Virus record (IMG/VR): IMGVR_UViG_3300025316_001101
Source: a virus
Taxonomy: Duplodnaviria; Caudoviricetes
Reading direction: 5' to 3' (one strand)
DNA: 64,000 nucleotides
Within the stretch, counting starts at the first letter, position 1; each line of letters starts with the position of its first letter. Below, piece by piece: positions 14,664-59,379 of this stretch. The notes under the pieces were generated by a model, which was given only the letters and a program-made list of their open reading frames with translations, was not told the origin of the DNA and made no database searches. The position numbers and the translations under genes are program-made.

Positions 14664-15152
14664 ATGCGATTTACAGAGTGGCTAATATTGGAGAAATATA
14701 TGACGGATGAATCGGCCTTTTGCGGATATTGCAAAAAGCCACTCGTAGCCAATGTTATTAGCATAAACCCCAATGAAAAATCACCAGGGCAATTAATGCA
14801 ATGTAGTTGCAAAAAATCTAAAATATGGACCAATAGAATTCGTAATGTAGATAACCTTTTAAGATTTGCATCTGGACAAATGCCTAAATACACTAATGGC
14901 TTTTGCAATGATAAATGGTGTGCGTACTGCTTTACATGGCCCGCATCTATAGATTGTGTAAAGACTGGCATACCCAAGGCTGTTCTTAAACATCGACGAG
15001 ATTTAGATCAATACGCATGTAGAAACTGCGACCAAAACAACTTACTGTACATGGATACGTCATTAGAGGGTAGTGAGTTAGACACTAAACCGATACTTGA
15101 TTGGTATAAAAATCACCTAATAGAACTAAAACGAGTGCTTGGTCAAACCTGA
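14664..15152 (+). CDS. Cys-rich zinc-binding protein with capsid-targeting-like N-terminus
   Basis: MRFTEWLILE start; several CxxC motifs; TAAATA 4 nt upstream. Confidence 0.7.
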   Translation: MRFTEWLILEKYMTDESAFCGYCKKPLVANVISINPNEKSPGQLMQCSCKKSKIWTNRIRNVDNLLRFASGQMPKYTNGFCNDKWCAYCFTWPASIDCVKTGIPKAVLKHRRDLDQYACRNCDQNNLLYMDTSLEGSELDTKPILDWYKNHLIELKRVLGQT

Positions 15153-15160
15153 GGTATAAC

Positions 15161-15595
15161 ATGGATTTCAAAAATTTCTTATTAACTGAAGGTTATGAAC
15201 AAGACCTCAAGAAAACATTGGCAAAAATTCCTAAAAAACATAAGGCTCTCATCCGAGGTTATAAATTCAAATTCCAACCTGGGAATGAACTCAAAGGTGA
15301 ACACGACAGTATTGGTCTAATCAATCGAAATACAAAAGTAGTAACCGTAGCAGCCCCGTGGAACTATGGTCGTGAATATACCGTTCTACATGAAATTGCA
15401 CATCTAATTTGGGAAACCCTGAATGAAAAACAGCAAACAAGGTGGCGAGAAATTGTAAAGAAACATCCTAGTGAAGATAAGCCAAGACAATCGAACGAAG
15501 AATATTTTGCTATGGCATATGCCTCAGCCTATGCCCATAATCAAATTAAGAAGTTCTGTATACCTGCGTGGCACAAGTTTATTCAAGGCTTGTAA
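15161..15595 (+). CDS. zincin-like metallopeptidase with capsid-targeting-like N-terminus
   Basis: MDFKNFLLTE start; LHEIAH (HExxH) and downstream EEYFA. Confidence 0.75.
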   Translation: MDFKNFLLTEGYEQDLKKTLAKIPKKHKALIRGYKFKFQPGNELKGEHDSIGLINRNTKVVTVAAPWNYGREYTVLHEIAHLIWETLNEKQQTRWREIVKKHPSEDKPRQSNEEYFAMAYASAYAHNQIKKFCIPAWHKFIQGL

Positions 15596-16632
15596 TAGTA
15601 TAAATACCCCAGCCAGCTTTCGTCCGCATCTGAGTTCCATTCTTTTAGATGCTTTTTACAAGTATATCTCATCAACCGACCCATCCAACTAGTGGTAAAA
15701 TGCAATGCTTTAGCAATCTCTTCAGATGAGTTGGCACCAACTTGATATAATTGAGGCAACCAATCAATATCTTGCCCTCCAATAAAGGGTACATCATTAT
15801 CCACAAAATCAGCAGCTACAATATTGAATGATTCGCTATAACTGACTTGCATGCCTATATCCATTGTCCTCACAAGATGTACAAAATCATGATGTGGCAT
15901 CCAAGGATGTAGGATAAGTTCATGCTTATCTTGTCCTTCAAAAAACGCATCAACATTCTTAAATACCTGTTGTCCATTTTGTTCACATCGATTGCCATTC
16001 ATGTGAAACATTAAATTCTTTCCAAGGCTATTGGCATATTTAACAGCAGCAATTGCTTGTATCAATTGATTTTTCATTGGTCTAATAGCCCCAAAACACC
16101 CTATATCAATTGAATTATCTCCATGTTTCTTCTGAGTGTAATATCGATGATAAACAGGTGGACAGTACACGTTTGGAAGATAAACCGTTCGAACACCCAA
16201 AGTATCAGCAAGATCCACTGTTATTTCTTCTGCGTTGGGAGCAATAATCAAATTGTTAAACACTTCTTGCAACTCTTTGTATTGTAACAACCACTTGAAA
16301 GCAATACCCTCGTTAGCAAGAAATGGAACTTTACTGTGAAGTCTAATAGCCCACTGTCTATTCTGATGCCTCTTGAGATTCATTAATTCATATATCTTAG
16401 CTGGCGTTACCCATATTGCCTCTATGAATACATGCGTAGGATCATACTCAGTCACAAGTTTATCAATACAATTACCATCAACAGCCCTAGCAACACTAGC
16501 AGTGATATGATTTTTGCGTAACGCATTAGCCATAAATTCTGCCGAATTCATTAGACCGTATGATGGATTATAACAATCGTAAAAATCATTACGTAGCTTG
16601 CATATAAATAATACCTTTAATTTAGGAGACAT
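15583..16632 (-). CDS. GT-B (GT4-like) glycosyltransferase
   Basis: GCFGAIRPMKN, SYSESFNIVAADF. Confidence 0.7.
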   Translation of the reverse strand: MSPKLKVLFICKLRNDFYDCYNPSYGLMNSAEFMANALRKNHITASVARAVDGNCIDKLVTEYDPTHVFIEAIWVTPAKIYELMNLKRHQNRQWAIRLHSKVPFLANEGIAFKWLLQYKELQEVFNNLIIAPNAEEITVDLADTLGVRTVYLPNVYCPPVYHRYYTQKKHGDNSIDIGCFGAIRPMKNQLIQAIAAVKYANSLGKNLMFHMNGNRCEQNGQQVFKNVDAFFEGQDKHELILHPWMPHHDFVHLVRTMDIGMQVSYSESFNIVAADFVDNDVPFIGGQDIDWLPQLYQVGANSSEEIAKALHFTTSWMGRLMRYTCKKHLKEWNSDADESWLGYLYYYKP

Positions 16633-16738
16633 GATATCCTCGCATGTGTTGACGTGGAAGGCCCAACAAACTAACGAACCTTACCCTATATATTCATGTC
16701 TAAGAAATAACTATCCAAACTAGGAGTTCTATAGTACA

Positions 16739-18055
16739 ATGAGTTGTAATATATCTGCCAAATTGCACTTCAGGAGATTCCTAATGGAAATGGAAACGAC
16801 CCCAGATCAGAAGGACCGCATTCGAACCATCATACAAAAGCTTATGGCTGATGATAAAAATTGGTTCAATCAGCAAGAAATCGCAGTCGGAAACAAAGGT
16901 CCGTACTGGGTGCTGAACTATATGCAGGGCTCCCGCAATGAATATAATCAACTTGTCCGTGGTATGATTATTCGTAAGCCAAATGGACAAACTATTAATG
17001 ATCCACTCGACCTGATTGTTAGCTTCCCATTTATGCGGTTCTACAATAAAGGCGAAAAAGAAGCTGCCCCTGTTGATTTTTCAAAAGCAGACATGCTAGA
17101 AAAACTAGATGGGTCAATGGTGGGAGTGTTTTTCCCAGATGGCGATCCCTCTAAGCCACAATACCATACTAGAAAAATGGTATCTGCCCATAAACCCGAC
17201 ATGGATATGATGATTGGCGGCTTTGAAACAGCCAAATCCGGCCCACAGCCATTCATGAAAATCATCGGAGAATACGTGAATAAACTACACTTCACTAAAG
17301 AAGATGTAGCTATGACCTATGTTTTTGAATTTATCCATGAAATTAGCAAGGTTCTAACCAGCTACTCGCCAGAAAAATATGGATTACACCTATTAGGTGC
17401 AAGAAACATACGCACTCACCGTGAATTAACAGAAGATCAATTAGATGTAATAGCTCGTAGAATAGGTGCCCCACGTCCACGTCGTTGGAATACTACTGGC
17501 GACGAGGCAGAAATCCGTCAAATGATGGATGAAATTGGCAAAGATACCGAAAACTTTGAAGGGGCTGTGTTCCGAGACCCGGAAGGCAACCGAGTGAAAC
17601 TAAAACGTGATGATTATGTCAAGCTACACCATTTGCTTGACAAACTATCCTTCAAACATTTAATCCCCAAGGTCTTGGAAGGGGAATCCGAGGAAATCAC
17701 TGCTTACTTCCCATCAGCCAAAAAAACCATTGAAACTTTCCAAAAAGCATTTGACGATTATATCGACAAAGCAGTAGTGGCTGTACGTAAATATCATGAT
17801 CAGAAATTAGATCGTAAAACCCTAGCCATGAAGATATTTCATGGAACTGGGGAAGATCTAGACCAGTACATGCGATCCCTGGTGATGAAACATTACGAAA
17901 ATGGTGATGAAGATTCCGTCCGACAAATAATCACAAGAGATCTTAAAACGGTTGCCCTCGGTCGAAATGGCGTTGGCGGCAGTCCACAAAGATTAATGGA
18001 AATTATTGGTATCCATGATGACGAATCGGACGAGAAACAAGACAAAGAGCCTTAA
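16739..18055 (+). CDS. Rnl1-type ATP-dependent RNA ligase
   Basis: EKLDGS (motif I), HTR, YVFEF, EGAVF, VKLK nucleotidyltransferase motifs; PFMRFYN-GE. Confidence 0.85.
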   Translation: MSCNISAKLHFRRFLMEMETTPDQKDRIRTIIQKLMADDKNWFNQQEIAVGNKGPYWVLNYMQGSRNEYNQLVRGMIIRKPNGQTINDPLDLIVSFPFMRFYNKGEKEAAPVDFSKADMLEKLDGSMVGVFFPDGDPSKPQYHTRKMVSAHKPDMDMMIGGFETAKSGPQPFMKIIGEYVNKLHFTKEDVAMTYVFEFIHEISKVLTSYSPEKYGLHLLGARNIRTHRELTEDQLDVIARRIGAPRPRRWNTTGDEAEIRQMMDEIGKDTENFEGAVFRDPEGNRVKLKRDDYVKLHHLLDKLSFKHLIPKVLEGESEEITAYFPSAKKTIETFQKAFDDYIDKAVVAVRKYHDQKLDRKTLAMKIFHGTGEDLDQYMRSLVMKHYENGDEDSVRQIITRDLKTVALGRNGVGGSPQRLMEIIGIHDDESDEKQDKEP

Positions 18056-18234
18056 TCTCCAGTCAATCGTTGTTCTAGAATTTTTTGAAGCTCAAGAAGA
18101 ATATCTTTACAATCCTCTAATTCGGGTGGTTCCATGTTATAAATCATAACAATGGCATCTTCCAAACGCTCTCTAGCGTTTTCGGGATTGCGAATTACAT
18201 CCTGCTCTTTTAGATAATCTTGAAAACTCTTCAC
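18052..18234 (-). CDS. small protein with capsid-targeting-like N-terminus
   Basis: Likely GTG start 18234 giving MKSFQDYLKE; TATATA 4 nt upstream. Confidence 0.55.
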   Translation of the reverse strand: MKSFQDYLKEQDVIRNPENARERLEDAIVMIYNMEPPELEDCKDILLELQKILEQRLTGD

Positions 18235-18297
18235 AAAATATATAGTCCCTTTCGGCACAAATGTGCCGAAAGGGACTGTTTTATTATTACAAACGCT

Positions 18298-19050
18298 TTA
18301 TACGCTTGCACTAACTGCTTGTGCTTGAATTCCTCTAAGAATCTTAGGAATAGTAACCATAGCTTGTTCTGTTAGTCTTTCGTAATCATTAATATCTAAG
18401 GCAAAGATCCGATAGTGATGACAAATAGGATTTCTCATCACCTGAGGCTTATACCCTGCTTGCTGTGCTTTAAGCGTCATCATAAAGGCATGCCCCACTT
18501 GTGGCAATTCTTCTAGCCACGGACCACAATCTCTCCAACAATCTTTAGTCATCATCATGCAATATTCTTCTACGAAATCTACTTTTTGCTGTTGCATGTA
18601 ATAAGATTGCAAGCTAACCCCAACAAATCCCGTACCTTGTGCCTCAGACACATTCACCAACAAATCAATCCATGCTGGATTAGTAATGACTATATCATGA
18701 TGCAAGAAAATAAAATACTTCGAATTCTTGTCTGCTGCTTCCATTCCTTTATTACAAGCGGCCGACCAAAATATATTCTTCTCACATCTTACAACCTTTA
18801 CTTCCTTATCAATTTCATTTAAGAATTCTTGACTGTCTGGACCTGATCCGTTATCAACAACAATGATCTCATAATTGTTGTTGAAACTAGTAACAGCTAT
18901 AGACTGAAGACAAATATTAAGATATTCTGGCCTATCCTTATGCACCACAATAATAGACACTTGTTCTTCACTTCCGTCATGAAGATTGATGGTTAACTCT
19001 GGCTTTTCCCCCTCCAGAGGATTGTGGGGAGTGATAATTTTCTCTGCCAT
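18298..19050 (-). CDS. GT2 glycosyltransferase
   Basis: VSIIVV, EIIVVDNGS, ACNKG, FLHHD; start ATG 19050 with GGAG SD. Confidence 0.9.
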   Translation of the reverse strand: MAEKIITPHNPLEGEKPELTINLHDGSEEQVSIIVVHKDRPEYLNICLQSIAVTSFNNNYEIIVVDNGSGPDSQEFLNEIDKEVKVVRCEKNIFWSAACNKGMEAADKNSKYFIFLHHDIVITNPAWIDLLVNVSEAQGTGFVGVSLQSYYMQQQKVDFVEEYCMMMTKDCWRDCGPWLEELPQVGHAFMMTLKAQQAGYKPQVMRNPICHHYRIFALDINDYERLTEQAMVTIPKILRGIQAQAVSASV

Positions 19051-19058
19051 ATTTCTCC

Positions 19059-19337
19059 TTATTCTAAATCTAATGGTACTGGTACTGATACTATAATTTT
19101 GATTAAGCCCAGCCACTTAACCAATCCTTCTATATCGTTCTCTTCACTAAATTGAGGACAGCACGTAAGCACTTTGTTCAAAGCAGCAATAGGCGTGTCT
19201 GCCTCTACTATTTGTACTTCTGCAATCATAGTTTCCGTAGGAGTGTTGATTCCAAAATATGACATGTCATCTCCGAATCCAACGGAATACCCATGTGGCA
19301 CTTCACGAATTCTATTTACGGATACTGCATATTTCAT
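19059..19337 (-). CDS. hypothetical protein
   Basis: ATGA-coupled to the upstream ORF. Confidence 0.6.
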   Translation of the reverse strand: MKYAVSVNRIREVPHGYSVGFGDDMSYFGINTPTETMIAEVQIVEADTPIAALNKVLTCCPQFSEENDIEGLVKWLGLIKIIVSVPVPLDLE

Positions 19338-19603
19338 TCCACGATCTCCAACTCAAAAGCTCCAACTTCACAAAAACACTCTAAATCTCCTTGCGGAGTA
19401 GACACCTTAATAGGTCGTATCTTACCTTCCGGTGTTACGTATGTCGCCTTTAACTCCTTCAATAAAGCATCAGCTTGTGAAGCTTGAGAAAAAGCTTTTT
19501 CGGTTTTTATAGCAACATACTCACCAGCAATTTGACGAGCCACTGTAATGACGCAAAAAATCTTTTGATGGTGAATGCCCTCGTTTTTATCGTTTTCTGC
19601 CAT
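19334..19603 (-). CDS. hypothetical protein
   Basis: GAGG SD; TAAATA at 19628-19633. Confidence 0.7.
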   Translation of the reverse strand: MAENDKNEGIHHQKIFCVITVARQIAGEYVAIKTEKAFSQASQADALLKELKATYVTPEGKIRPIKVSTPQGDLECFCEVGAFELEIVE

Positions 19604-19639
19604 AATTTACCTCTACTTTAAGATAGTTATTTACCAATA

Positions 19640-21093: not shown

Positions 21094-21504
21094 ATGATAA
21101 CTTTTAAGCAATTCATACAACTTTCGGAAGATAATACCATTGGGTATCATAACGACGGTCCAGGCAGTGGACTAGCGTATGGTAGCGGTGCGTTGCTTGG
21201 CAGCGATTTTACAGGAAGCGAAACTGCTGGCAAATTCTTGGGAAATCCCCTTCATTTACCAAGTTTAGACATGACGATTCCTCAGGTAGTTCGCTCTGGA
21301 GTAGTGCGACTCTTAGAAAAAAACAAAAATCCCATTCACATCTTGCTATCAGACGGAACAAGACTTCATTTAACCTGGGATCAATATAAAAGAATAGAAG
21401 GTACTGAACCGGCTATAGGCAAACTAATGCATGTGACATTTCAAAGAAACGTCAATAACGGCCCAGATGAAACATCTCAAATCACACAATGTCGTTGTGA
21501 TTAA
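21094..21504 (+). CDS. hypothetical protein with capsid-targeting-like N-terminus
   Basis: MITFKQFIQLSE start; isolated + strand gene; TAAATA about 25 nt upstream. Confidence 0.7.
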   Translation: MITFKQFIQLSEDNTIGYHNDGPGSGLAYGSGALLGSDFTGSETAGKFLGNPLHLPSLDMTIPQVVRSGVVRLLEKNKNPIHILLSDGTRLHLTWDQYKRIEGTEPAIGKLMHVTFQRNVNNGPDETSQITQCRCD

Positions 21505-21806: not shown

Positions 21807-21814
21807 CCTTTTTA

Positions 21815-28664: not shown

Positions 28665-28895
28665 TTACTCACTCTTCTTGTGTTTCTTTTTTCGATGTGT
28701 TTTATGCTTTTTGTGCTTCTTGGGCTTGTCATCACCAGCTAGTTTATCTACTTGCCAAAACACTGCCGTACTATGTGCATTAACCCCAGCGGCCGGAATT
28801 GGTGGCATTAACCCCAAAGCTGCATTCCATCGTAATCTAGTAAATGGACTAGATTCTTGTGTTTGTAACCAATCTCTAAAACCTAATAGACTCAT
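28665..28895 (-). CDS. small basic protein with capsid-targeting-like N-terminus
   Basis: MSLLGFRDWLQTQE start; K/H-rich tail; TATATA 5 nt upstream. Confidence 0.7.
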   Translation of the reverse strand: MSLLGFRDWLQTQESSPFTRLRWNAALGLMPPIPAAGVNAHSTAVFWQVDKLAGDDKPKKHKKHKTHRKKKHKKSE

Positions 28896-28984
28896 ATTAA
28901 TATATATTACAATATATCAAATAAAAAACCCAACATGGACTTTGTAAAAAGTCTATGTTGGGTGCCAACTACAATCTAATCGCA

Positions 28985-36496: not shown

Positions 36497-39184
36497 TTAT
36501 TTGATAATTTCTATCGTTGGTGACGGCCTTTCCATAATTGTCAATCGCACATCGTCTTTCTTTTCTTTAGGAATCACCTTATGTCGATATGCTTTGGGCG
36601 GGCTTTCAAAGGTGTAATTCTTAAATGGTGGCTTTGGCCGTTCCAATCTGACTTTTAATAAATGTCCCTTTCGTGAATCGGATTCCCAATACTGCAATTC
36701 AGATTCGAACCGCTTGTAATCCTCATCCCACATTGTCACCCCTTCTGTCTGCCATTCAGCATCCTCGACCTTGAAAACATAATAGGGATTTCCCGTCTTG
36801 GATTTCTTTTCAACAGGCCGTTCTATAACTCTAACCTCCACCACCGTAATGGCAATATCCTCTAAATCAACCCGGCGACGAAATTCTCCAAAGGTATATC
36901 CCTCATAATCTGGACTCTTTTCCAGCATATGTTCCCAACCAAATCCATAAAATTTATCTTCTGCCTCAATAGGATCTGCACGGAAGATCTTTGCCAATTC
37001 CTCATCAATCTTGCCAGGAGGTTCAAACCCCTCTAAAACAATAGGCTTATCCTCAGCCTGTTTTTCCCGAATGGAGATTACATTCTTCTTGTATTTGCCG
37101 ACATACTTCTTCCACTGTTTGACATCAAATTTATCTAAACAATCCGCCATCCATTCATTTAATGCAATATTGCAACCATCATCATCTAACTCAACACATT
37201 TATCTAAATGGGCAGCCGCCTGTTCTCTTATTTCGGCAGATTGTTCTGCTGTGATAATGCCCTTCAAACCTCTAGCATCGACCGCCAAAAACACAAGATC
37301 ATCAACTATTTCATTACGGCTTTTGACGTTACGCTTATCTCTGTCCACACGCTTCTTCATCTGCTCTTTGTAATATTCGGCAAATTCATAAAGTGTAACA
37401 GCACTCATACCAGTATCTTTGAAAACTCGCAATCCAATCAGCGGCTTGATTACAGCAGCGTCCGTACCAAATCTTGTCAAGAAATCTTCAAAACTGGCAT
37501 ATGGTTGGCCAGCAACGATCCGCTTGGCTACTTCTTCTCCAATTCCTTTGATATTGGCAAAACCAATATAAATTGAATCGCCTACAATAGAAAATTTAAC
37601 CTTAGACTTATTCAAATCCACACGATTGACTGCAATGCCAAACTTTTCGGCTTCCAGTTTATATTCTTTAACCTTTTCTTCATCCTCTTCACAACTCAAA
37701 ATAGCCGTAAAGAATTCCAAAGGATAATGAGCTTTTAACCAAAGAAGACGTGAACTGATATAGGTATAAGCCACCGCATGGCTCATGTTAAATCCATAAT
37801 CTGCAAACGCTTCAATATAGTCCCAAAGCTTAACAACGTCCTCTAATGGCCATTCTAATCGCTTCTGTCCTTCTTCCAAGAATTTATTCTTGTACTTAAT
37901 AAACTTATCAACCTTCTTCTTGCTAATAGCCTTACGTACAAGCTCACAATCCTTTAATGGAATATCACCTACGATATTCAAAATCTTCATAACCTGCTCT
38001 TGATAAACAAGAACGCCAAAGGTCTTGCCAAGTACCGGCTCCAACAACGGATGAATTTCGTAATGTTCCAATCCGTTCTTTCGGTCGCAGTAGTTCGTGG
38101 CCATACCCGAACCTAACGGCCCAGGACGATACAACGCAGTATAGGCCGCAAGATCATCGAAACTATACACGCCACCACGTTTTACCAATTCCCGCATTCC
38201 GGCCGAATCAAATTGGAATATGCATCGCAATTTACCCTGATTGGCTAAAGCCAATGCCTTGGGATCGTTAAGATATGAAATATCTGACCAACTTTCCCGG
38301 CCGGGCAACGCACAGATATTTTCAATACCATGCCGAAGCTTAATTTCTTCCGCAATTGACTTAGTGGTATTATCTGCTCGTTCAAGAATGATTCTAGCCG
38401 CTTGCGCAAGCTGTTCTAAGTTCGTTAGGCCAAGCACGTCATATTTAACCAATCCCACAGGCTGCAAGTCTTGTGCATGTAACCCTTCAGTCCAAGCTGA
38501 TACTGGGTTGCCATCCGAATCTGTGCATAGAGGGACAAGATCGGCAATGGGGATTCTAGAAATAATCAATCCCCCGGCATGCTTGCCACGACTCCTAATA
38601 CGATTCAACATCCGCTTGGCAGCCTTGGCAATATCGGGATGTATTTTACAATACTCTGCAAGATCCTTGTTTAACTCTAATGCCCGTTCCCAAGTCAGCG
38701 TCTTGCCTTCATCGTCTTTCAAACCCAACTTGGTCGTCACATTCAATACTTCATCACGATCTGCACTAAACACCTTAGCCATATCAATCAAAGAACTTTT
38801 GATTCCAAATGTATTATAACTTCCAATGTTACACACATTCTCTGGGCCAAATGTCTTAGGTGCCCACTCATCCTTGAGATACATCCGCACGTCCTTCTTA
38901 AAATCTACGTCAATATCAGGAAATTCGCCGTAAATGTAGACGGGCTGCTGACTCTCATCCCAGTCTTCACAAATACCCAACAGCAATGCGATCAACAAGT
39001 TATTTTCATTCCTGTCAATCTTCACTCCACGGTCATGCAAGTCCAGAAAATAATCGTGCTCATTGAAGTCGTCAACCGCCTTCAATTCCAACTTCATTCG
39101 CTTTTCATGTTCTTCACCATATCCGGCCAATTGTGCTATCGTAGTTTCGCACAATTGGATCAATCGTTCTTTTGAATCCATCAT
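36497..39184 (-). CDS. dnaE: DNA polymerase III alpha, C-terminal part (palm/fingers/OB)
   Basis: PDIDVDF, GKHAGG-II, KYDVLGL, FQF-S-GM, ALYRPGP, YQEQVM, Y-FNMSHAVAY; no PHP domain. Confidence 0.95.
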   Translation of the reverse strand: MMDSKERLIQLCETTIAQLAGYGEEHEKRMKLELKAVDDFNEHDYFLDLHDRGVKIDRNENNLLIALLLGICEDWDESQQPVYIYGEFPDIDVDFKKDVRMYLKDEWAPKTFGPENVCNIGSYNTFGIKSSLIDMAKVFSADRDEVLNVTTKLGLKDDEGKTLTWERALELNKDLAEYCKIHPDIAKAAKRMLNRIRSRGKHAGGLIISRIPIADLVPLCTDSDGNPVSAWTEGLHAQDLQPVGLVKYDVLGLTNLEQLAQAARIILERADNTTKSIAEEIKLRHGIENICALPGRESWSDISYLNDPKALALANQGKLRCIFQFDSAGMRELVKRGGVYSFDDLAAYTALYRPGPLGSGMATNYCDRKNGLEHYEIHPLLEPVLGKTFGVLVYQEQVMKILNIVGDIPLKDCELVRKAISKKKVDKFIKYKNKFLEEGQKRLEWPLEDVVKLWDYIEAFADYGFNMSHAVAYTYISSRLLWLKAHYPLEFFTAILSCEEDEEKVKEYKLEAEKFGIAVNRVDLNKSKVKFSIVGDSIYIGFANIKGIGEEVAKRIVAGQPYASFEDFLTRFGTDAAVIKPLIGLRVFKDTGMSAVTLYEFAEYYKEQMKKRVDRDKRNVKSRNEIVDDLVFLAVDARGLKGIITAEQSAEIREQAAAHLDKCVELDDDGCNIALNEWMADCLDKFDVKQWKKYVGKYKKNVISIREKQAEDKPIVLEGFEPPGKIDEELAKIFRADPIEAEDKFYGFGWEHMLEKSPDYEGYTFGEFRRRVDLEDIAITVVEVRVIERPVEKKSKTGNPYYVFKVEDAEWQTEGVTMWDEDYKRFESELQYWESDSRKGHLLKVRLERPKPPFKNYTFESPPKAYRHKVIPKEKKDDVRLTIMERPSPTIEIIK

Positions 39185-44264: not shown

Positions 44265-44576
44265 TTACTCTTGAGGATTCCTTTTTAACCATGCCGCAAT
44301 AACACCATCGGGATCTTCCGGTGCTTTATAATCAAAAATATTATCACAACACATCTTTCGTAATTTATCAAAAAATTTCGGATCAGAAGGATTGGCTGCA
44401 CGTGTTGGAATTACACCCATAATCTGCCGAAACAATTGATACATGTCACCTATTCGAGTGGTGTCTAACATGCCCTGTTGTGCAAGTTTTAATAGCCCAG
44501 ATAATCGTAGCTTTTGAGCAGCACCAGCAGCCTCTAACATATTATGTTCGGCAAGATATTCTTCAAATAATTGCAT
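44265..44576 (-). CDS. hypothetical protein with capsid-targeting-like N-terminus
   Basis: MQLFEEYLAE start; TATATA 4 nt upstream; no SD. Confidence 0.7.
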   Translation of the reverse strand: MQLFEEYLAEHNMLEAAGAAQKLRLSGLLKLAQQGMLDTTRIGDMYQLFRQIMGVIPTRAANPSDPKFFDKLRKMCCDNIFDYKAPEDPDGVIAAWLKRNPQE

Positions 44577-44599
44577 GTATTATATACGATCAGCGCACG

Positions 44600-47743: not shown

Positions 47744-47833
47744 TTATGCCTCTGATCGTAGAGGGATCTTAAATATCTAGGGATTGCGGATACATAAATG
47801 CAGACAGATTCCATAAATACTGTGGAGATTAAT

Positions 47834-48022
47834 ATGATCAAACGTAATATGTCAGATAAAATTATCGGTGGTGTTTGCTCTGGATTGGCAAAAGAAATAG
47901 GCGTTGATTCAACGTGGGTCAGATTGGCTTTTCTTTTTGCTTTTTTATGGGCGGGCGTTGGACCGCTAGTTTATCTTATAATGTGGTTATTAATGCCCCC
48001 TGATACCGAAACGAGGATATAA
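47834..48022 (+). CDS. pspC: PspC-domain membrane protein
   Basis: [23 protein letters not shown]; start ATG 47834 with GGAG SD; TAAATA at 47814-47819. Confidence 0.9.
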
Positions 48023-48025: not shown

Positions 48026-49141
48026 ATGAAAAAGTTCCCTAAATTCTATGAATACCTAGACCAGAAAGGAAAGCTGGTAGAGAAGCCGAAAGAAGAGGAT
48101 GTGCCGGATTACCACGGAGCGACTGACGCCTCTCCTCCTAATCCTGTAACTAAGGGCAAAAAATGGGATGCTGAATATGCAGCACCTCTTAAAGATAGCC
48201 AAAAACCTTACAAAGCTCCTGGCAAAGACATGACTGCGCAGCAGAGTATGGGTAAAGATAATGAAGGTGGATTGCTTTCTCAAGGTGATAAACGATTGGT
48301 ATACAATCCAAGTCTGAAAGGCGGTACATCTAAAAACATCAATGGCGGAAAAGAAGTACATGGTTGGGACAAGAAAACCAAAACCGAACAATTCATTGAC
48401 AAGACCAAGAACATGTCTTTTCAAGAATTTACAGCTTACATAAAAAAACTAAATCGTTTAGATGAAGACGTAAGCGACATTCCAATGGTTACTGCCTATG
48501 CTCCTGGAAATTTTCATCCGCATCCAGTAGAAGCCATACAGTATATTGTAGCATTAGCTGCCAAGAATGATCGTATACTAGAGCAACTCATTCATGTCAT
48601 GAAAAAAGAAGGTGTGCTTGATAAGCTTATTAAAACCGTAATGGAACACCCTGAAGCCGCTGACGCACTAACTGGATTGTTAGGCGATGAACAGCATGGT
48701 CCAAGATTAAGCCGTTCTTTAGCTAGATCTATGCACAAGCAACATGCTGATTTCCTTGATAAACAAAAGGGCATGTATGAATCAGTAGCTCCACCATTTG
48801 GCGATGATGATGAAGATGAAAATTCACCAGAAGATGGTGAAGGAGAAGCTGGAGAATTAGATGATCAGCCCGGCGAAGGCGAAGAAGACGGCGGCGACGA
48901 AGGCCAAGAAGGTGATGAAAACCAAGAGGGCCAGCCAGATGATCAAGGTGGCGAAGAAGATCAAGAGGGCCAGCCAGATGATCAAGGTGGCGAAGAAGAC
49001 CAAGAGGGCCAACCAGATGATCAGCAACAACCTCCTCCGCAAGAAAAGCCAAGAAAACTAAAGAAGAAATTTGCACATCATAACATGTTAGATGCTCTAT
49101 CTAACTTTGAACATATGAGAGATGCAATGAGAGCATACTAA
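48026..49141 (+). CDS. acidic low-complexity protein (possible prohead core/scaffold)
   Basis: MKKFPKFYEYLD start; internal SFQEF motif; D/E/Q/G-rich C-terminal half. Confidence 0.7.
   Translation: MKKFPKFYEYLDQKGKLVEKPKEEDVPDYHGATDASPPNPVTKGKKWDAEYAAPLKDSQKPYKAPGKDMTAQQSMGKDNEGGLLSQGDKRLVYNPSLKGGTSKNINGGKEVHGWDKKTKTEQFIDKTKNMSFQEFTAYIKKLNRLDEDVSDIPMVTAYAPGNFHPHPVEAIQYIVALAAKNDRILEQLIHVMKKEGVLDKLIKTVMEHPEAADALTGLLGDEQHGPRLSRSLARSMHKQHADFLDKQKGMYESVAPPFGDDDEDENSPEDGEGEAGELDDQPGEGEEDGGDEGQEGDENQEGQPDDQGGEEDQEGQPDDQGGEEDQEGQPDDQQQPPPQEKPRKLKKKFAHHNMLDALSNFEHMRDAMRAY
48922..49023 (+). repeat. 39-bp coding tandem repeat (about 2.6 copies)
   Basis: caagagggccagccagatgatcaaggtggcgaagaaga unit encoding QEGQPDDQGGEED. 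Confidence 0.85.
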
Positions 49142-49152: not shown

Positions 49153-49184
49153 AAAAACGCCCGGCCATTGGCCGGGCGTTTTTT
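49153..49184. terminator. bidirectional terminator between convergent genes
   Basis: A5-cgcccggcc-att-ggccgggcg-T6. Confidence 0.85.
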
Positions 49185-49186: not shown

Positions 49187-49798
49187 TTACTGTGTCTTCA
49201 ATCTGTCATACATGTGTTCGGCATAGCCCACATCGGACAGTTTACGACTACTAAAGTCTCCTGTGTATTTTCTGGGCACAGCATGCAACAAATATCTCTG
49301 GATTAAATCTGGAATAAATAGAGGTTCCGCTTGTCCTTCTGGCATTTCGTGTTCGGCCTGTACAAAATAGCAACGACCATTTTCATCACGAAATAAATCT
49401 ATCTCCCACATATAATCAGTCCCATCTCTAGTGACATATAGAAAATGGCGGTCCTTAATCAAATGTTCGGTGGAAGTATCCCATAAATCCTTAAAATCTC
49501 TTTCTGGGATTTCTGCCTCTACTTCCACCGTTCGATCATTAAGCTTTTGTTTAAGCGTCAACGAGAAATGTTCAACGGCATGATAAACCCCACGGATGCG
49601 CACGCTTAAACTGGTATCTCCGTAAAGGTATGCTTGTTTAATAGGATCTGGTTCAGCCAGCAGTCGTTCCAACTCTGTGATCTGAACCTTTTTATCTTTT
49701 AGATCTTGCGCAAAACTAAGATCTAGAACGAATTTTAACTCATTTTCTGTTGGCATAATGTTCTTATTGTTCTTCCCAAGGGGCAATACTGTTATCAA
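49187..49798 (-). CDS. CYTH-domain protein
   Basis: ENELKF (ExExK), QAYL, RIR, LTLK, EVE, WEIDLF, EHE. Confidence 0.85.
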   Translation of the reverse strand: MITVLPLGKNNKNIMPTENELKFVLDLSFAQDLKDKKVQITELERLLAEPDPIKQAYLYGDTSLSVRIRGVYHAVEHFSLTLKQKLNDRTVEVEAEIPERDFKDLWDTSTEHLIKDRHFLYVTRDGTDYMWEIDLFRDENGRCYFVQAEHEMPEGQAEPLFIPDLIQRYLLHAVPRKYTGDFSSRKLSDVGYAEHMYDRLKTQ

Positions 49799-51188
49799 CT
49801 ATTTGTGCGGCTGGTTCAAACTCTGGCTCTTTAGGTTTTGGAGGATCATAATTTCCACTAAATCTTAGTCGAATTGATTTACCACCACGGGCAGGACTCA
49901 TAAACCGTGAAAACAACAAATCATGCAGGATTGGATTCACATCAGTAATTCCCAAAAGGTAATTGGTTAGTGCGCCCACTCCTGAACCACGACCAGGACC
50001 AACAGCTTCGGTCCCATCTGTACCGTACTTTTCGGCACAATATCTCCGAGCTTCATCAGTCATCATCTTTTCGATCAAGAAGTAGCTGGCAAATTCTTTA
50101 CTACAAATCAGACCTAGCTCTTCACGGATACGGTCCAAATACAATTGATTTGTGGGCAAACCACGCTTTTTGAATCCTTCCATCACATACTGCCGCAATT
50201 TATCATTAGCACAATCAATCACTGGCAATTTCAAGGAACGATCCAATTGTACGCCTTTTGCTTTTTCACAAATTCGTACTGTATTTCGTTTAGCCTCTTT
50301 GAACAGTTCGTAATCAATGACATCGCTATACTTCTCTTCCCACTTTTTATTGATCTCGTCCTCTGTTTTCATAAAGAGGTTCTGATCCTGCAACTCGAAA
50401 AGCTCTCCTGCTCGGCCCTCTGAAATCTGTTCCTGAATTTCCGCCAAAGTTTTGCCGGTCTGGATCATGAGCATGACCCGTTGCATAAAGCTATCTTCTT
50501 CTTTACAGTAATGGCAATCGTTTGTAAGAACGAGAGGAATGCCAAACTTCTTATGGGCTTCGACAAGAAATGCATTATAGGGCTTTTGTTTATCAAAGTC
50601 CAGCAGCATCATCTCCAAGTAAAAATGCTCGCCAAACATTTCATGGTACTTGCGTACCACGTCCATTGCTTCGTCTTTTTCCTTGGTGTCAAAAGTATAT
50701 CCAATTTCACAGTTGTAGCAACCACTGCAAAAAGTGATTCCTTCCTTATACTTCGTGAGTTGTTCGTAATTTACTCTAGGTTTATAATAAAATCCATGTA
50801 GCCATCCCCAAGAAGTAAGCTGCACCAAATTCTTGTACCCGACCTCATTATGAGCTATAGCAAGAAGGTGGCACGACTTTCGGAAGCGTTTTTTATCATC
50901 TTCGCCCATACCTTTAATGAACTCACCAGTCGATTGACCGATAGGTACATCTGGTTGCTGGGAATTGAGATATAATTCACATCCAAACAATGGAAATAGC
51001 CCATTATCTTCACAAGCTTGAATTTGGCGTGGGATGGCTCCCATCATGCCATGATCAGTTATGCAAAGATATTGCTGATTAGCGGCCTTAGAATACTCTG
51101 CATACTCTTCGACCATAGCATATCCATCAAGGACACTGAAATCAGTATGTCTATGAAGGTGCTCAAACCCCGTAATTTCATGCTGCAT
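49764..51188 (-). CDS. dnaE: DNA polymerase III alpha, N-terminal part (PHP + start of palm)
   Basis: HLHRHTDFSVLDG, ITDHG, GCELY, LTNDCHY, YFL, GPGRGSG, LGITDVNP, LLFSRFMSP-R, then terminates. Confidence 0.95.
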   Translation of the reverse strand: MQHEITGFEHLHRHTDFSVLDGYAMVEEYAEYSKAANQQYLCITDHGMMGAIPRQIQACEDNGLFPLFGCELYLNSQQPDVPIGQSTGEFIKGMGEDDKKRFRKSCHLLAIAHNEVGYKNLVQLTSWGWLHGFYYKPRVNYEQLTKYKEGITFCSGCYNCEIGYTFDTKEKDEAMDVVRKYHEMFGEHFYLEMMLLDFDKQKPYNAFLVEAHKKFGIPLVLTNDCHYCKEEDSFMQRVMLMIQTGKTLAEIQEQISEGRAGELFELQDQNLFMKTEDEINKKWEEKYSDVIDYELFKEAKRNTVRICEKAKGVQLDRSLKLPVIDCANDKLRQYVMEGFKKRGLPTNQLYLDRIREELGLICSKEFASYFLIEKMMTDEARRYCAEKYGTDGTEAVGPGRGSGVGALTNYLLGITDVNPILHDLLFSRFMSPARGGKSIRLRFSGNYDPPKPKEPEFEPAAQIVDNSIAPWEEQ

Positions 51189-55104: not shown

Positions 55105-55233
55105 GTTGTTTCTCCTTTTGTATATTTTATTATAGCTGCAATGTTCAGATTTACCAAACCCATTAATGAAAAAGGCTCGCCGGTACTTGTACCGGCGAGC
55201 CACAACCCAACCCATCCCAACAACAACTATCTA

Positions 55234-57342
55234 TTACTTATTATCTGCAATATCGCCTCGGGCAAATATTGACCCTACGTAATCAAGAATATCCGTAGCA
55301 CTTTGATCATTATAACCTTTATGCTTGATTAAGCGTTGTTTAATTGCATCGATCTTCTCTTGGATATCAGGATCAACTACGGCCGCACCACTAACGTGCA
55401 AAGCAGACAATTTAATATGATCTTTGGTATCTTCGAATAACTTGGCTTCCAAAGCCCGCTTTAACTCAGGATTTGAATCCCACTGGAACGTCTTCCCCTT
55501 GGTGGCCAAACTACCAATAAAGGCTGCCAAACTTCTACGGAAATCGTCCACACCCGTTTCTGGAATGTCAATCTTTTCTTCAATTGACCGCATAAGGCGT
55601 TCATCCGGCTGTTGATCCTTTTCGGTATATGGATTACGAACCTTAGCCTTATTGATATAAGCCATCATGTTGTCAATATAATTCGAACACAGCCTAATAA
55701 CTGCACCTTCGTCGCCCACCAAAGCCTCCTGAACTTCTTTCTTGAGGATTTCGTCCAATTCCTTCATGGCAAGATCAATGCAAGTAGAATACTTGCTAAT
55801 CTCATCCTTGTTAGTAATCAAACTGCTTTGGTCCAAACCCTCACGTAGTTCATTAAGAACCATGAAAGGATTGATATAATCCTGGTGTGAACTGAGGCAA
55901 TTCGATATCTTGTCCTGCACGTATCGGCAGCTTACTCCACCGAACATGCCTTCCATTGGATATTTATCCCTCAATTCCTTAACTGAATCTTCAGTTTTTC
56001 CGGGCAGACTCTTTCCGTCATATAGCTTAGCCTTGTCTACCAATGTTAATTCACCATCCTTATCATCTTGCAATCTGGTAAGAATAGCCCACAACCCGGC
56101 AATTTCCAATGTGTGTGGGGCCACATGCTGACGGACCTTTCCATTTCCGTAATAATGCTCCAGCACCTTCTTTTCATCGCCCCACCGCAATAAATACGGC
56201 ACATCGATTTTAACGGTACGATCACGAAGAGCTTCCATCGACTGGTTGTTCTTTAATTTTTCGTATTCTGGATTATTCGTGTGACCAATAAGCATCGTGT
56301 CTACACTAATCTGCGAGAACTTCTTCGGCTTTATCTGCTGTTCCTGACTTGCACCCAACAGATCATACAAGAACTCCTGAGCTAATTTGAGCATTTCAAT
56401 AAACTCAACAAGACCACGATTTCCAACACAAAACTCGCCATCGAAATTGAACGCTCTTGGATCACTATCCGAACCAAAGTGCGGCAACTGTGCAAAGTTA
56501 ATATCGCCTGTCAATTCCGTACTGTCTTGATTCTTTTCATCTTTAGGTTGGAATGTAGCGATTCCCATTCTATCTGCTTCAGAATAAACTTTACGAACAA
56601 CACGAATGTGCTTGTTCACTACAGTTAACCAATCGCCATTATTGATCAACATTAATTCTTCCATGAACTTCTTGCTACGAGGATCTAAGTCTCCATCGCA
56701 CTTTAGAGTATAAAGACTAATGCGATCCTTCTCTGGGGTCTGTTCTTGAAGAACATCATTCAACTCAGCAACAATCTTTTGTCGCACACTTCCTGCGATT
56801 AATTTAATCGGGTCTTCATGCATGGGGGAAAGATTTTCACTGTGAGTAAAAATGCCAGTTTGTCCAGTAGGCAAATCTACCCACTTGAATGTATACCACG
56901 ATCCCTCTGGAGTGCGAGAGTATCTTTCTAATCCCTTCTTTAACAAACGACAAATGGTAGATTTAGCTGATCCTACAGGGCCGTGCAGCAATAATACCCG
57001 CTTTTCCGTGCCATATCCACCCGCTGCACCTCTCATGAATTTCACAAGATTTTCCAATGTATCCTCAAGTCCAAAAATAGGAACTTCGAGATCATCAAAA
57101 AATGAATAATGCGTATAAGTCTTTCTGTACCGCTTAAATTTATTGCAACCCTTTGACATAATCATGTCGTAAGCTCGCTGATAAGCGGTGCGAATAAGCC
57201 GAGGATTTTGATACACTCGGTCTAAATATTCAGCAAATGACATTTCCTCATGAAGTGTTTGAAACTCTTCTTTATTGAAACATGCTGACAGTTTCTTTAG
57301 TCTATCAGGTCCAACTGCATTTTCCATATCATTAATCCTCAA
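55234..57342 (-). CDS. prkA: PrkA/YeaG AAA+ serine kinase
   Basis: LLHGPVGSAKST, NRGLVEFIEMLK, LLGASQE, EALRDR, DVPY-L, APHTLE. Confidence 0.95.
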   Translation of the reverse strand: MRINDMENAVGPDRLKKLSACFNKEEFQTLHEEMSFAEYLDRVYQNPRLIRTAYQRAYDMIMSKGCNKFKRYRKTYTHYSFFDDLEVPIFGLEDTLENLVKFMRGAAGGYGTEKRVLLLHGPVGSAKSTICRLLKKGLERYSRTPEGSWYTFKWVDLPTGQTGIFTHSENLSPMHEDPIKLIAGSVRQKIVAELNDVLQEQTPEKDRISLYTLKCDGDLDPRSKKFMEELMLINNGDWLTVVNKHIRVVRKVYSEADRMGIATFQPKDEKNQDSTELTGDINFAQLPHFGSDSDPRAFNFDGEFCVGNRGLVEFIEMLKLAQEFLYDLLGASQEQQIKPKKFSQISVDTMLIGHTNNPEYEKLKNNQSMEALRDRTVKIDVPYLLRWGDEKKVLEHYYGNGKVRQHVAPHTLEIAGLWAILTRLQDDKDGELTLVDKAKLYDGKSLPGKTEDSVKELRDKYPMEGMFGGVSCRYVQDKISNCLSSHQDYINPFMVLNELREGLDQSSLITNKDEISKYSTCIDLAMKELDEILKKEVQEALVGDEGAVIRLCSNYIDNMMAYINKAKVRNPYTEKDQQPDERLMRSIEEKIDIPETGVDDFRRSLAAFIGSLATKGKTFQWDSNPELKRALEAKLFEDTKDHIKLSALHVSGAAVVDPDIQEKIDAIKQRLIKHKGYNDQSATDILDYVGSIFARGDIADNK

Positions 57343-57398
57343 TGGGTTTATGGGTTTAAGTTAAGTATATCCAATCAAAACTTAGTATCCAAATGAAA

Positions 57399-57704
57399 TT
57401 ATTCAACGGCTCCAAAATGTTTTCCAGAACTAATATCATCAATCGGATTGTATGGTTGAGTCCCCATCTTAGAAGCTCTTTCGGCCATTTCACGTTCCTT
57501 CATGGCTTGAGGAAGTTTATTATTATATTGCCAATCATGAGAATCATGTGGCACTAGAACTGCGGTTAAACTCATTAACTTCTGTTTTTTGTCTGAACCG
57601 CACTTAGGGCAAATAACGCCTGGATATGCACCCGTTTCATCAAACTTTGTCAATTCAACAAATTCGGTATTGCACTCTTCACATTGAAAATCATATAAGG
57701 CCAT
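57399..57704 (-). CDS. FmdB-family zinc-ribbon protein
   Basis: M-LYDFQC-EC---F...CPKCGS----KLMS. Confidence 0.85.
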   Translation of the reverse strand: MALYDFQCEECNTEFVELTKFDETGAYPGVICPKCGSDKKQKLMSLTAVLVPHDSHDWQYNNKLPQAMKEREMAERASKMGTQPYNPIDDISSGKHFGAVE

Positions 57705-57709
57705 ATTAA

Positions 57710-58009
57710 CTACTCGTCATCTTCCTGAGCATCATCTTTTGGATGCATTAGCTGACTTAAAGTAGTATATGCCTGAGAAATCATTTGTAATTTTTTCTTT
57801 AATTGCATGGCACTCCATGCAGGAGAGTCTTTTGCTACCTCTATGGCCATGTTCATCAGATTTTGATCTAACGATTCAGACATTAAATCTGTCTGCATCA
57901 TTGCCACAAAAGCGGGATCTACACTGCCTTCCATTTCTTCGTCATCTTGACCGTAGAAGTTCGGCTCTTCACGTTCTTCATCTCCGCCGTAATTAAATCT
58001 TCTAGCCAT
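57710..58009 (-). CDS. acidic hypothetical protein
   Basis: GGAG SD; 99 aa. Confidence 0.7.
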   Translation of the reverse strand: MARRFNYGGDEEREEPNFYGQDDEEMEGSVDPAFVAMMQTDLMSESLDQNLMNMAIEVAKDSPAWSAMQLKKKLQMISQAYTTLSQLMHPKDDAQEDDE

Positions 58010-58018
58010 TGCTCCCCC

Positions 58019-58555
58019 TTAAAATGTGAATAACTGACCCGCCTTTTCCCAAAGTTCTAAAACTTTCATTTCGTTCAGTGTTGGATCAACATTTCCAAAC
58101 CTCCCTATCGCATTGTGAAAAGGATGTTCTACTCTATTTATCCACTCAGATAAGATAAACCCGCCACATCTATGCTCATAAGTGACCAATGTTGCCGGTT
58201 CATTCGACTGCACATCTACCGGTCCAGGAATATCTGGGTGATATGTCCTTAACGCCATCGTCTGTGGTGAAATTATTTTTACCAAATCCACTTTCTTGGA
58301 ATCAAACACTTTAGTGTTTGAAAACACAGCATTAGGATCTTTACTAGAATATGTAATAATGTCTACCCCACACGGATGTGCCCACTTAAACATATCCCAT
58401 TCCGCATGCATGCGATTGTATGCTAAAACTAATTTGGCATCAGGTAAATTTTTATGAAAAGAATACCAACACGCAAATGCTGACCAATTATCCGAAGTGT
58501 GCGGATAACAATTAATAATTATTCCTAATCCATCTCCGGTTTCATTAATTTCCAC
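58019..58555 (-). CDS. hypothetical protein
   Basis: ORF in operon (GTG start). Confidence 0.7.
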   Translation of the reverse strand: MEINETGDGLGIIINCYPHTSDNWSAFACWYSFHKNLPDAKLVLAYNRMHAEWDMFKWAHPCGVDIITYSSKDPNAVFSNTKVFDSKKVDLVKIISPQTMALRTYHPDIPGPVDVQSNEPATLVTYEHRCGGFILSEWINRVEHPFHNAIGRFGNVDPTLNEMKVLELWEKAGQLFTF

Positions 58556-58748
58556 TATCTACCTCTTCTCCCGTTTCCACATCAATAATAACAAAATCCC
58601 CAGCTATTGGTCCGTAAATCTCTGCACATTTTTTACAAGCTCTTAACATATCCGCTGCCTCTTCTATCGTTGGCGCACACCATAGGCCATAATGAGGATG
58701 AATCAATCTTTTATTGATGCGTTTGTTAAAAAGCGTATACACAATCAC
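58545..58748 (-). CDS. hypothetical protein
   Basis: GTGA-coupled small ORF. Confidence 0.6.
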   Translation of the reverse strand: MIVYTLFNKRINKRLIHPHYGLWCAPTIEEAADMLRACKKCAEIYGPIAGDFVIIDVETGEEVDSGN

Positions 58749-59140
58749 TTACCCTGTGGTTTCTGCGTAGGAGACTTTTTGCCCTGCTGTAGTTTAGTAG
58801 GGTTGTCAGCAAAACCAGATGGATTGTATTTCCCAGGTATGGGATTAGAAAGAGGACTAGGCGGTGGATTGTACACTGGTTTTATACCAGGAGAATATGG
58901 ACTAGCTGTTATAGGATGTGGATTTTTCTCTGCTGATGACATGGGACCAGCGGGCGGATTAGGAAGACCCTTCACACCAGGAGTCATTGTGCTTGGCGGT
59001 GGTGGATTAGGTGATGCTGCTTTCTTTTGAGGATTAACATGCCCTACAGGATTCATTCCAGCCATTCCCGAAGCCTGCGGACCACCTTGCGACCCACCAA
59101 GCTTTACTTCGGTTGCATAAAAGAATTCCCTAAACGTCAC
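58745..59140 (-). CDS. Pro-rich protein with capsid-targeting-like N-terminus
   Basis: MTFREFFYATE start; disordered P/S/G-rich body. Confidence 0.7.
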   Translation of the reverse strand: MTFREFFYATEVKLGGSQGGPQASGMAGMNPVGHVNPQKKAASPNPPPPSTMTPGVKGLPNPPAGPMSSAEKNPHPITASPYSPGIKPVYNPPPSPLSNPIPGKYNPSGFADNPTKLQQGKKSPTQKPQGK

Positions 59141-59379
59141 TGATCTTCTCCTAAATCCGATCTAAGTTTCTGACTGGCTGTAGCTATCTGTGCAACTACC
59201 TTAGGATCAGCATTGGGAGCAATTTTACCTGCTGCCGCATCTACTGCTTTTTCCATATCCACCTTAGGAGTTTTGTTATTCTTGTTTTGAATAGCCTTTT
59301 TGCCAGCCGCCACCACCTGCTGATTTAAGAGTTTAGCAGCGTCTTCTTCTAACCATGTTTTGAATGTTAATGTTCCCAT
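59137..59379 (-). CDS. Ala/Lys-rich protein with capsid-targeting-like N-terminus
   Basis: MGTLTFKTWLEE start; TATATA 5 nt upstream. Confidence 0.7.
   Translation of the reverse strand: MGTLTFKTWLEEDAAKLLNQQVVAAGKKAIQNKNNKTPKVDMEKAVDAAAGKIAPNADPKVVAQIATASQKLRSDLGEDQ

Follow-up and report, generated by a model that had tools for sequence, protein, structure and literature searches.

Probable T4-type capsid-targeting N termini on unrelated proteins of an uncultured huge phage: a candidate set of head-packaged proteins

Ten otherwise unrelated proteins encoded in a 64,000-nucleotide stretch of the virus record IMGVR_UViG_3300025316_001101 (Duplodnaviria; Caudoviricetes), referred to here as the window, begin with a short peptide that resembles the capsid targeting sequence (CTS) of the internal head proteins of phage T4. 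Our results suggest that this N-terminal tag probably serves as a T4-type capsid targeting sequence and removable propeptide, and that it does so on approximately 9% of the genes of the phage. We favor this interpretation because the tags display the sequence features of the CTS, because a collinear relative encodes T4-type head machinery, because the tag behaves as a portable and selected element, and because tagged genes share their layout with virion genes.

RESULTS

A short N-terminal tag on otherwise unrelated proteins

The window is part of a 102,185-bp record with a completeness of ~20% as estimated by CheckV, and nearly all genes of the record are located on the minus strand. All ten N termini that had been listed in an initial annotation made from the sequence are present at their places in the window, with corrections to the starts at 16739, 18234, and 59140. 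On the plus strand, MRFTEWLILE (ILE at residues 8 to 10) begins a Cys-rich protein of 162 residues with a pI of 8.8 (14664 to 15152), MDFKNFLLTE begins a zincin-like protein of 144 residues (15161 to 15595), LHFRRFLME directly precedes the METT... core of a 430-residue T4 Rnl1-like RNA ligase (16763 to 18055), MITFKQFIQLSE begins a protein of 136 residues (21094 to 21504), and MKKFPKFYEYLD, which ends in Asp, begins a protein of 371 residues whose C-terminal half is acidic and of low complexity (48026 to 49141). On the minus strand, the tag is VKSFQDYLKE in an acidic protein of 60 residues (18052 to 18234), MSLLGFRDWLQTQE in a protein of 76 residues with a pI of 10.5 and a Lys/His-rich tail (28665 to 28895), MQLFEEYLAE in a protein of 103 residues (44265 to 44576), VTFREFFYATE in a Pro-rich protein of 131 residues with a pI of 10 (58745 to 59140), and MGTLTFKTWLEE in a basic protein of 80 residues (59137 to 59379). 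The gene starting at 59140 overlaps the end of the gene starting at 59379 and belongs to the same operon.

The corrections concern start codons. The peptide LHFRRFLME had been placed at 16739, and the peptide itself is there to be read; the open reading frame at 16739, however, begins with MSCNISAK, and the tag starts at a TTG codon at 16763. The peptides at 18234 and 59140 are also present, except that their first residue is not the Met originally given; both genes start with GTG, the former being the minus-strand frame at 18052 to 18234. Three of the ten tagged genes thus have TTG or GTG starts, and public gene calls miss two of the tags. The open reading frame at 14664 was missing from our first gene set because the PhoH open reading frame on the opposite strand can be overextended. 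The true start of the PhoH gene lies at 14605, and the codon score of 14664 to 15152 is positive; this frame carries a 14th tag that is outside the count of 13 tagged genes used below. The earlier statement that five of the eight plus-strand genes belong to the tagged set holds for the credible plus-strand genes at 14664, 15161, 16739, 21094, 29915, 46399, 47798, and 48026.

The initial annotation had made its proposal depend on an enrichment of the motif at N termini, and such an enrichment was found. With the strict pattern F..[FWY][LIMF].{0,3}[ED], and with a start match defined as one within 7 residues of the gene start, the 31,458 amino acids encoded by the 102-kb record contain 26 matches, 13 at gene starts and 12 internal. 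The internal rate predicts 0.39 start matches, compared with the 13 found at 147 gene starts (Poisson P = 6e-16). A looser pattern is found at 17 of the 147 gene starts versus 11 of 1,911 internal ATG/GTG/TTG codons, and the enrichment at gene starts is at least 30-fold. Three more tagged genes of the record lie past the end of the window, at 64614 (MKCFQEWIE), 77727 (MMNNLSFKNFME), and 77760 (MDTLSFKLFMKE). That the carriers are otherwise unrelated, as had been claimed, is supported by pairwise BLASTP comparisons among the 13 tagged proteins, all of which gave E values above 0.05 beyond the tag. The first aromatic residue lies 2 to 6 residues from the start, and the conserved positions are encoded by varying synonymous codons (TTT/TTC, several Leu codons, and GAA/GAG), and therefore the constraint acts on the peptide.

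Correspondence of the tag with the T4 capsid targeting sequence

The comparison with the MKTYQEFIAE-type signal of T4 that had been drawn in the initial annotation proved to be real and specific. In the T4 genome (NC_000866), ipII and ipIII read MKTYQEFIAE/A, with the slash marking the boundary after Glu, and ipI begins with MKTFKEFTSTTTPVSTITE/A, that is, MKTFKEFT...ITE/A. The first ten residues of IPIII are sufficient for packaging in T4; suppressor substitutions assign targeting mainly to residues 4 and 7 and processing to residues 8 and 10; with Asp as residue 10, targeting is retained and cleavage is blocked (PMC9026906). According to the accounts of Mullaney and Black 1996 given in PMC9026906, PMC9958956, and PMC3012670, the CTSs of IPII, IPIII, and IPI are removed by the gp21 prohead protease.

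We derived an anchored consensus from 90 tags, loosely defined and taken from the record and from its relative LR756511.1 described below; it reads M-[KL]-[TSD]-F-[KR]-[EQD]-[FW]-[LFV]-E..., and its four conserved positions are exactly residues 4, 7, 8, and 10 of the T4 CTS. All ten tags of the window have Phe at position 0 and Phe, Trp, or Tyr at position +3, and in four of them these are exactly residues 4 and 7. The full T4 spacing, with aromatic residues at 4 and 7, Leu at 8, and Glu at 10, is found in VKSFQDYLKE (18234) and MQLFEEYLAE (44576). Seven of the ten end in [LIM]-x-E at residues 9 to 12, and two have Thr or Ala at P3. When the pattern was applied without the required acidic residue, a Glu followed within five residues of the core in 71% of the N-terminal and 33% of the internal core motifs (P = 0.0025).

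Like the CTSs of IPI, IPII, and IPIII, the tags are located at the extreme N terminus, comprise 9 to 15 residues, contain two aromatic residues three positions apart at approximately residues 4 and 7, in most cases continue with Leu, Ile, or Met after the second aromatic residue and with Glu two residues further on, and are carried by otherwise unrelated, often small and basic proteins. Unlike in the T4 sequences, Trp is frequent at the second aromatic position. As a control, the loose pattern was applied to T4, where it finds IPII, IPIII, and gp61.1 together with seven matches unlike the T4 tag. The hypothetical protein gp61.1 (54 residues; NC_000866, 18966 to 19130), whose gene adjoins the primase gene, starts with the CTS-like sequence MKTFKEFIKE.

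Conservation and modularity of the tag in related phages

The gene content of the window, with NAD ligase, a split DnaE-type polymerase, Ro60, PhoH, dUTPase, and glycosyltransferases, is that of replication and nucleotide metabolism. Within the phage collection, LR756511.1 (an uncultured phage of 595 kb) is the closest record. Homologs of 62 of the 148 called proteins of the record are present in LR756511.1, mostly in collinear order between 293 and 380 kb, and the phage therefore belongs to this lineage of huge phages. When 8 kb of the window were compared with the phage collection at the nucleotide level, no match was obtained. A letter-identical copy of the RNA ligase of the window occurs on an ENA contig of 196.9 kb, and a 373.8-kb contig is also listed in the protein index.

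LR756511.1 contains 38 strictly tagged genes compared with 3.3 expected (P = 5e-27), many of which start with MKTFxEWLE. Orthologs retain the tag while its letters drift: MDFKNFLLTE of the 15161 protein corresponds to MEGFRQFFEQTE in LR756511.1, and the LR756511.1 orthologs of the 28895 protein (589869 to 590045) and the 48026 protein start with MKTFIDWLKVKE and MDLKSFSEFLRK, respectively. An exhaustive profile search with the 15161 protein, a member of an HExxH family, gave only 65 representatives, each with less than 50% identity to the others. The tag begins 52 of these, and the family alignment shows no variation at F3.

The RNA ligases provide a view of the tag as a module. At least 27 of 86 homologs read ...F[RK]xFL[VI]E-METT..., a number that is a minimum because public gene calls often start at the Met that follows the tag. 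We examined the upstream DNA of four members without the tag. Two of them, one on a 279-kb contig and the other in a neighborhood of PhoH, ligase, small gene, and glycosyltransferase like the one here, start exactly at METT. Upstream there is either an in-frame stop four codons away, accompanied by a Shine-Dalgarno site, or a frame that contains no tag. The two others, which are more distant, likewise have no tag upstream. As ligase orthologs exist without the tag, the tag is an optional add-on, and its boundary, [LIV]-x-E/M, coincides with the N terminus of the untagged ligases, which fits the expectation for a removable propeptide. Judged from these sequence comparisons, the tag is portable and under selection.

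T4-type head genes in LR756511.1

Between 523.5 and 526.6 kb of LR756511.1, genes for an S77 protease (E = 7e-28), a protein of 310 residues, and a Gp23 capsid protein (E = 5e-87) are located side by side. The 310-residue protein is Glu rich, matches no family, and sits where scaffold gene 22 would be in T4. Homologs of gp17, gp20, and gp13 were also detected in LR756511.1 with phmmer. The capsid protein is highly conserved in the clade (7,832 database matches, the best 120 at ~80% identity), and none of the 7,832 matches could be traced to the 373.8-kb or 196.9-kb assemblies that harbor the ligase of the window.

The capsid protein of the clade starts with MNAN[AS][KR]FLNE/A...TGLLE/GI and the protease of LR756511.1 with MREGVMLLNE/F. 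In both proteins, a Φ-L-N-E sequence ends at residue 10, which is the form of FIAE/A in T4 IPII and IPIII, and this is likely to be the cleavage rule of the protease of this clade. Three tag-like peptides are found beside the capsid gene, namely, MEFREWFRSAE on a protein of 1,076 residues, MLTWTEFLEARQ, and an internal ...DFKEWYFINE, of which the strict pattern catches one, MEFREWFRSAE.

Near the capsid gene of LR756511.1 we also noted a tagged protein of 165 residues assigned to phrog_1017 (521964 to 522461) and a protein of 514 residues that contains the internal DFKEWYFINE (520504 to 522048); both could be head cargo. The idea that the tag is a copy of a scaffold repeat was considered and not used, as the scaffold candidate of LR756511.1 contains only loose echoes of it (KFVEVL at residue 3 and QFVEML at approximately residue 133).

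Layout of the tagged genes

Five tagged genes of the window have a TA[ATG]ATA box 4 to 5 nt before the start codon and no Shine-Dalgarno site. The box is TAAATA at 14654 to 14659 on the plus strand, 4 nt before the ATG of the 14664 gene, and TATATA on the minus strand at 18239 to 18244 (4 nt before the GTG of the 18234 gene), 28901 to 28906 (5 nt before the ATG of the 28895 gene), 44581 to 44586 (4 nt before the ATG of the 44576 gene), and 59385 to 59390 (5 nt before the ATG of the 59379 gene). Ordinary Shine-Dalgarno sites are present at four tagged genes of the record, those at 15161 (GAGG), 48026, 59140 (AGGAG), and 64614. Several tagged genes constitute units of their own, with strong terminators directly upstream of the 18234 gene (a hairpin of 15 to 17 pairs at 18244 to 18277) and the 59379 gene (a hairpin at 59405 to 59436) and downstream of the 48026 gene (49153 to 49183). 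The 28895 and 44576 genes are each preceded by a hairpin with a T-run.

This layout is associated with the tag. In the record it is found in 6 of 17 tagged versus 5 of 130 untagged genes (P = 3e-4), and in LR756511.1 in 29 of 73 versus 50 of 994 (P = 1.5e-16), with a spacer that is almost always 4 or 5 nt. The same layout is seen at untagged genes of LR756511.1, among them one for a structural protein of the virion (phrog_1645; E = 3e-69), one for a head-tail adaptor of the gp13 type, and one with a weak match to a tail lysin, and the terminase, portal-region, and capsid genes have a TATATA or TAAATA box 20 to 35 nt upstream, followed by a Shine-Dalgarno site. On the basis of this layout, the tagged genes look coregulated with virion genes. 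Tagged genes are also found on the minority strand more often than the others (5 of 14 versus 14 of 132 in the record; 17 of 40 versus 206 of 1,025 in LR756511.1) and are enriched next to strand switches. The TA[ATG]ATA box resembles the T4 late promoter, TATAAATA, and by analogy its position 4 to 5 nt before the ATG suggests that these genes would give leaderless late-type transcripts. Matches to the sigma-70 consensus were not enriched in a scan (39 found versus 50 expected, and 43 versus 40).

Proteins that carry the tag

An RNA ligase, a metalloprotease, and a zinc-finger protein had been proposed to be among the tagged proteins. The ligase is clear: the 16763 protein matches PHROG 562 over residues 22 to 389 (E = 1e-41), so that the profile match begins past the tag, and it is T4 Rnl1-like by PF20819 T4_Rnl1_C (27.4 bits versus a cutoff of 27) and by phmmer to T4 gp63 (1.3e-12). 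The proposed metalloprotease agrees with our prediction for the 15161 protein, a zincin-like protein of the HExxH+E type. Across 46 sequences of its family, H77, E78, H81, and E114 do not vary (motif H77-E78-x-x-H81, E113/E114), and its AF2 model (pLDDT 92) contains a zincin-like domain. The best look-alikes in the PDB are Pro-Pro endopeptidases (PPEP), lethal-factor-type proteins, and minigluzincins, with TM scores of 0.5 to 0.6 and weak E values of 0.02 or above, and the match to Pfam ATLF (16 bits) is below the cutoff. Small metallopeptidase is therefore a reasonable, if provisional, label for this protein.

As for the zinc-finger protein, the 14664 protein is indeed Cys rich, but no zinc-finger family matched it. 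Searches of Pfam and PHROGs gave no family for eight of the ten tagged proteins, including this one, and Atlas look-ups of the 14664 and 21094 proteins gave no usable lead. The model of the 21094 protein has an N-terminal third of low confidence followed by a small beta domain. Other tagged proteins are small, basic, acidic, or of low complexity and have no known relatives. In LR756511.1, the tagged proteins have a higher median pI (8.4) than the remaining proteins (6.3; P = 9e-6) and are thus more basic; T4 internal proteins touch DNA via lysines (PMC3012670).

DISCUSSION

If the tag acts as the CTS does in T4, a function that we consider probable for it, the two aromatic residues (Phe, followed three residues later by Phe, Trp, or Tyr) would dock the newly made protein on the scaffolding core of the assembling prohead, and a prohead protease of the gp21 type (S77) would cut at the hydrophobic-x-Glu sequence that follows them. 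Once the shell has closed, the protease would take off a propeptide of 9 to 15 residues, and the mature protein would stay in the head beside the DNA and could leave with the DNA at infection. Packaging into the head and cleavage after Glu are proposed here purely by analogy with T4. Injection for immediate action in the host, as suggested in the initial annotation, would be a step beyond a capsid targeting function and is suggested only by analogy with T4 IPI.

A number of observations weigh against a T4-type targeting function. Neither a Peptidase_S77 (PF03420) match nor any head gene was detected in the 102-kb record itself; as the record is only ~20% complete, the absence of the protease says little. 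The link to T4-type heads is made through LR756511.1, a relative with only 49% identity in DnaE. Three of the ten tags deviate from [LIM]-x-E, two by Thr or Ala at P3 and the 48026 tag by its final Asp, a residue with which T4 proteins are targeted and not processed. The tagged proteins of the record show no basic shift relative to the rest of the record, though several have a pI of 9 to 10.5. In the AF2 model of the 15161 protein, the tag begins a long helix (residues 3 to 20) that continues into the domain and is not a free peptide. An RNA ligase would be an unusual protein to package, and ~9% of genes as cargo (13 of 147 in the record) would be far above the handful in T4. The PhoH gene, which starts at 14605 on the minus strand, also has a box 4 to 5 nt before its start. 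Finally, searches with all T4 proteins by phmmer found no gp55, gp33, or gp45 homolog in the record or in LR756511.1, and the term late promoter is therefore an analogy.

Some of these observations would be expected if the tag were instead a docking helix for another partner of late proteins (a chaperone, for example, or an assembly factory, or else a part of the tail or baseplate) and resembled the CTS because both had converged on an amphipathic helix with aromatic residues. In favor of this view, the cargo includes enzymes that act in the cytoplasm, among them the RNA ligase, and T4 Rnl1 also aids tail-fiber attachment according to the name of PHROG 562; the modeled tag helix that runs on into the HExxH domain and the large fraction of tagged genes (~9%) would be accommodated as well. 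We nevertheless regard a docking helix as unlikely, since the match to T4 spans four functionally mapped positions in addition to the N-terminal site and the length of 9 to 15 residues, the relative has T4-type head genes with a capsid protein and a protease that both display Φ-L-x-E at residue 10, and ligase orthologs that lack the tag begin exactly at the residue following the Glu.

We give much less credence to two explanations in which the peptide has no role in assembly. A signal for degradation or timing that limits the lifetime of the protein and is recognized by a protease of the host or the phage, for example, as a ClpX-type N-motif, would also be a short, portable N-terminal peptide on unrelated proteins, and K-T-F-K loosely recalls the ClpX N-motif (polar-T/Φ-Φ-basic-Φ). 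The best-conserved positions of the tag (the aromatic residue at +3, Leu at +4, and Glu) are nevertheless outside known Clp motifs, and such a signal explains neither the basic cargo nor the layout common to virion genes, which makes it quite improbable. Equally, the peptide could be a by-product of a requirement at the level of the mRNA, as many of the genes are seemingly leaderless and the layout of box, 4 to 5 nt, and start codon is strongly associated with the tag. However, the tagged genes at 15161, 48026, 59140, and 64614 have ordinary Shine-Dalgarno sites, there is free variation among the codons used for Phe, Leu, and Glu, the first aromatic residue is found at distances of 2 to 6 residues from the start, and many genes with the box are untagged, and we consider this origin more improbable still. 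Lastly, the three non-ATG starts and the two tags skipped by public gene calls might raise the suspicion that the pattern arose by chance, from misassigned start codons, or from paralogs that had escaped notice. These explanations are refuted by the enrichment (P = 6e-16), the lack of pairwise similarity beyond the tag, and the conservation of the tag upstream of the ATG in many ligase homologs, and they retain practically no weight.

A T4-type targeting function would still differ in scale and in use from that in T4 itself. The relative resembles T4 in having gp21-, gp22-like, and gp23-type head genes. On the other hand, T4 has three or four tagged genes, whereas the tag is found on 13 of 147 genes here and on at least 38 of 1,067 in LR756511.1; the cargo here includes enzymes (the RNA ligase and the zincin-like peptidase); and many tagged genes stand alone with the TA[ATG]ATA box 4 to 5 nt before the start and without a Shine-Dalgarno site. 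As outlined in PMC9026906, other T-even phages have variable internal proteins with CTS-like N termini, which follow the same idea of a conserved address peptide on fast-changing cargo. Those phages are close relatives of T4 with genomes of ~170 kb, whereas the lineage studied here is that of a huge freshwater phage that is uncultured and has Ro60, Y RNAs, and a polymerase of the DnaE type.

The large phages phiKZ, 201phi2-1, and SPN3US offer a second comparison, as many of their internal head proteins are cleaved after Glu, by gp21-related proteases that cut head and ejection propeptides after (S/A/G)-x-E or A-x-E, and the propeptides are thought to target the prohead (PMC5694885). These propeptides mostly exceed 100 residues and have no common N-terminal consensus (PMC5694885), unlike the short, T4-like tag described here, and the A-x-E rule of the phiKZ-type proteases applies to a single tag of the window (59140, A-T-E). 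No paper in the literature library that was searched links such tags to huge phages.

One tentative possibility is that huge phages with T4-type heads have turned a capsid label into a genome-wide sorting code, with which tens of unrelated proteins, among them an RNA-repair ligase, a small zincin, and basic or low-complexity proteins, would be expressed from what are probably leaderless late-type units. After loading into the head and trimming at the Glu, they would enter the host together with the DNA as a starter proteome. We consider this broader proposal conceivable and hold it with less confidence than the targeting function of the tag. If it is true, sequence alone would suffice to read which proteins uncultured phages package and inject. 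Even if the tag only works as it does in T4, the set of proteins carried in the head of an uncultivated huge phage could be listed from its genome. Such proteins are prime candidates for counterdefense and takeover functions; T4 IPI blocks a restriction enzyme. The CTS would then be an old feature of T4-type head assembly that is used far more widely outside the T-even phages, and its natural variants would be ready for use in the T4 protein-packaging tool. Confirmation of the layout of TA[ATG]ATA, 4 to 5 nt, and start codon would make it the mark of a class of late transcripts without leaders in this lineage.

Other features of the record

The DnaE-type polymerase is encoded by two genes on the minus strand, 36497 to 39184 and 49764 to 51188, which are separated by 10.6 kb. 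The N part has 474 residues and the C part 895 residues, and the counterpart in LR756511.1 is a single gene for 1,179 residues. The break lies at ...LLFSRFMS / ...PDIDVDF, with extra tails on both halves and no obvious intein, and approximately 14 genes, two of them tagged, are located between the halves. Directly upstream of the tagged gene at 48026, on the same minority strand, is a small gene for a PspC-domain protein (47798 to 48022, plus strand; PF04024, E = 6e-21).

Past the end of the window, the tagged genes at 77263 to 77727 (minus strand) and 77760 to 78203 (plus strand) diverge from a spacer of 32 bp, each with a box of its own. The latter overlaps by 4 nt a gene for a TnsA-like endonuclease (78200 to 78868, plus strand), for which an assignment as a gp4-type head completion protein was rejected as weak (phmmer to T4 gp4, 2.7e-9, whereas Pfam identifies the TnsA-like endonuclease). 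The gene pair is also kept in LR756511.1.

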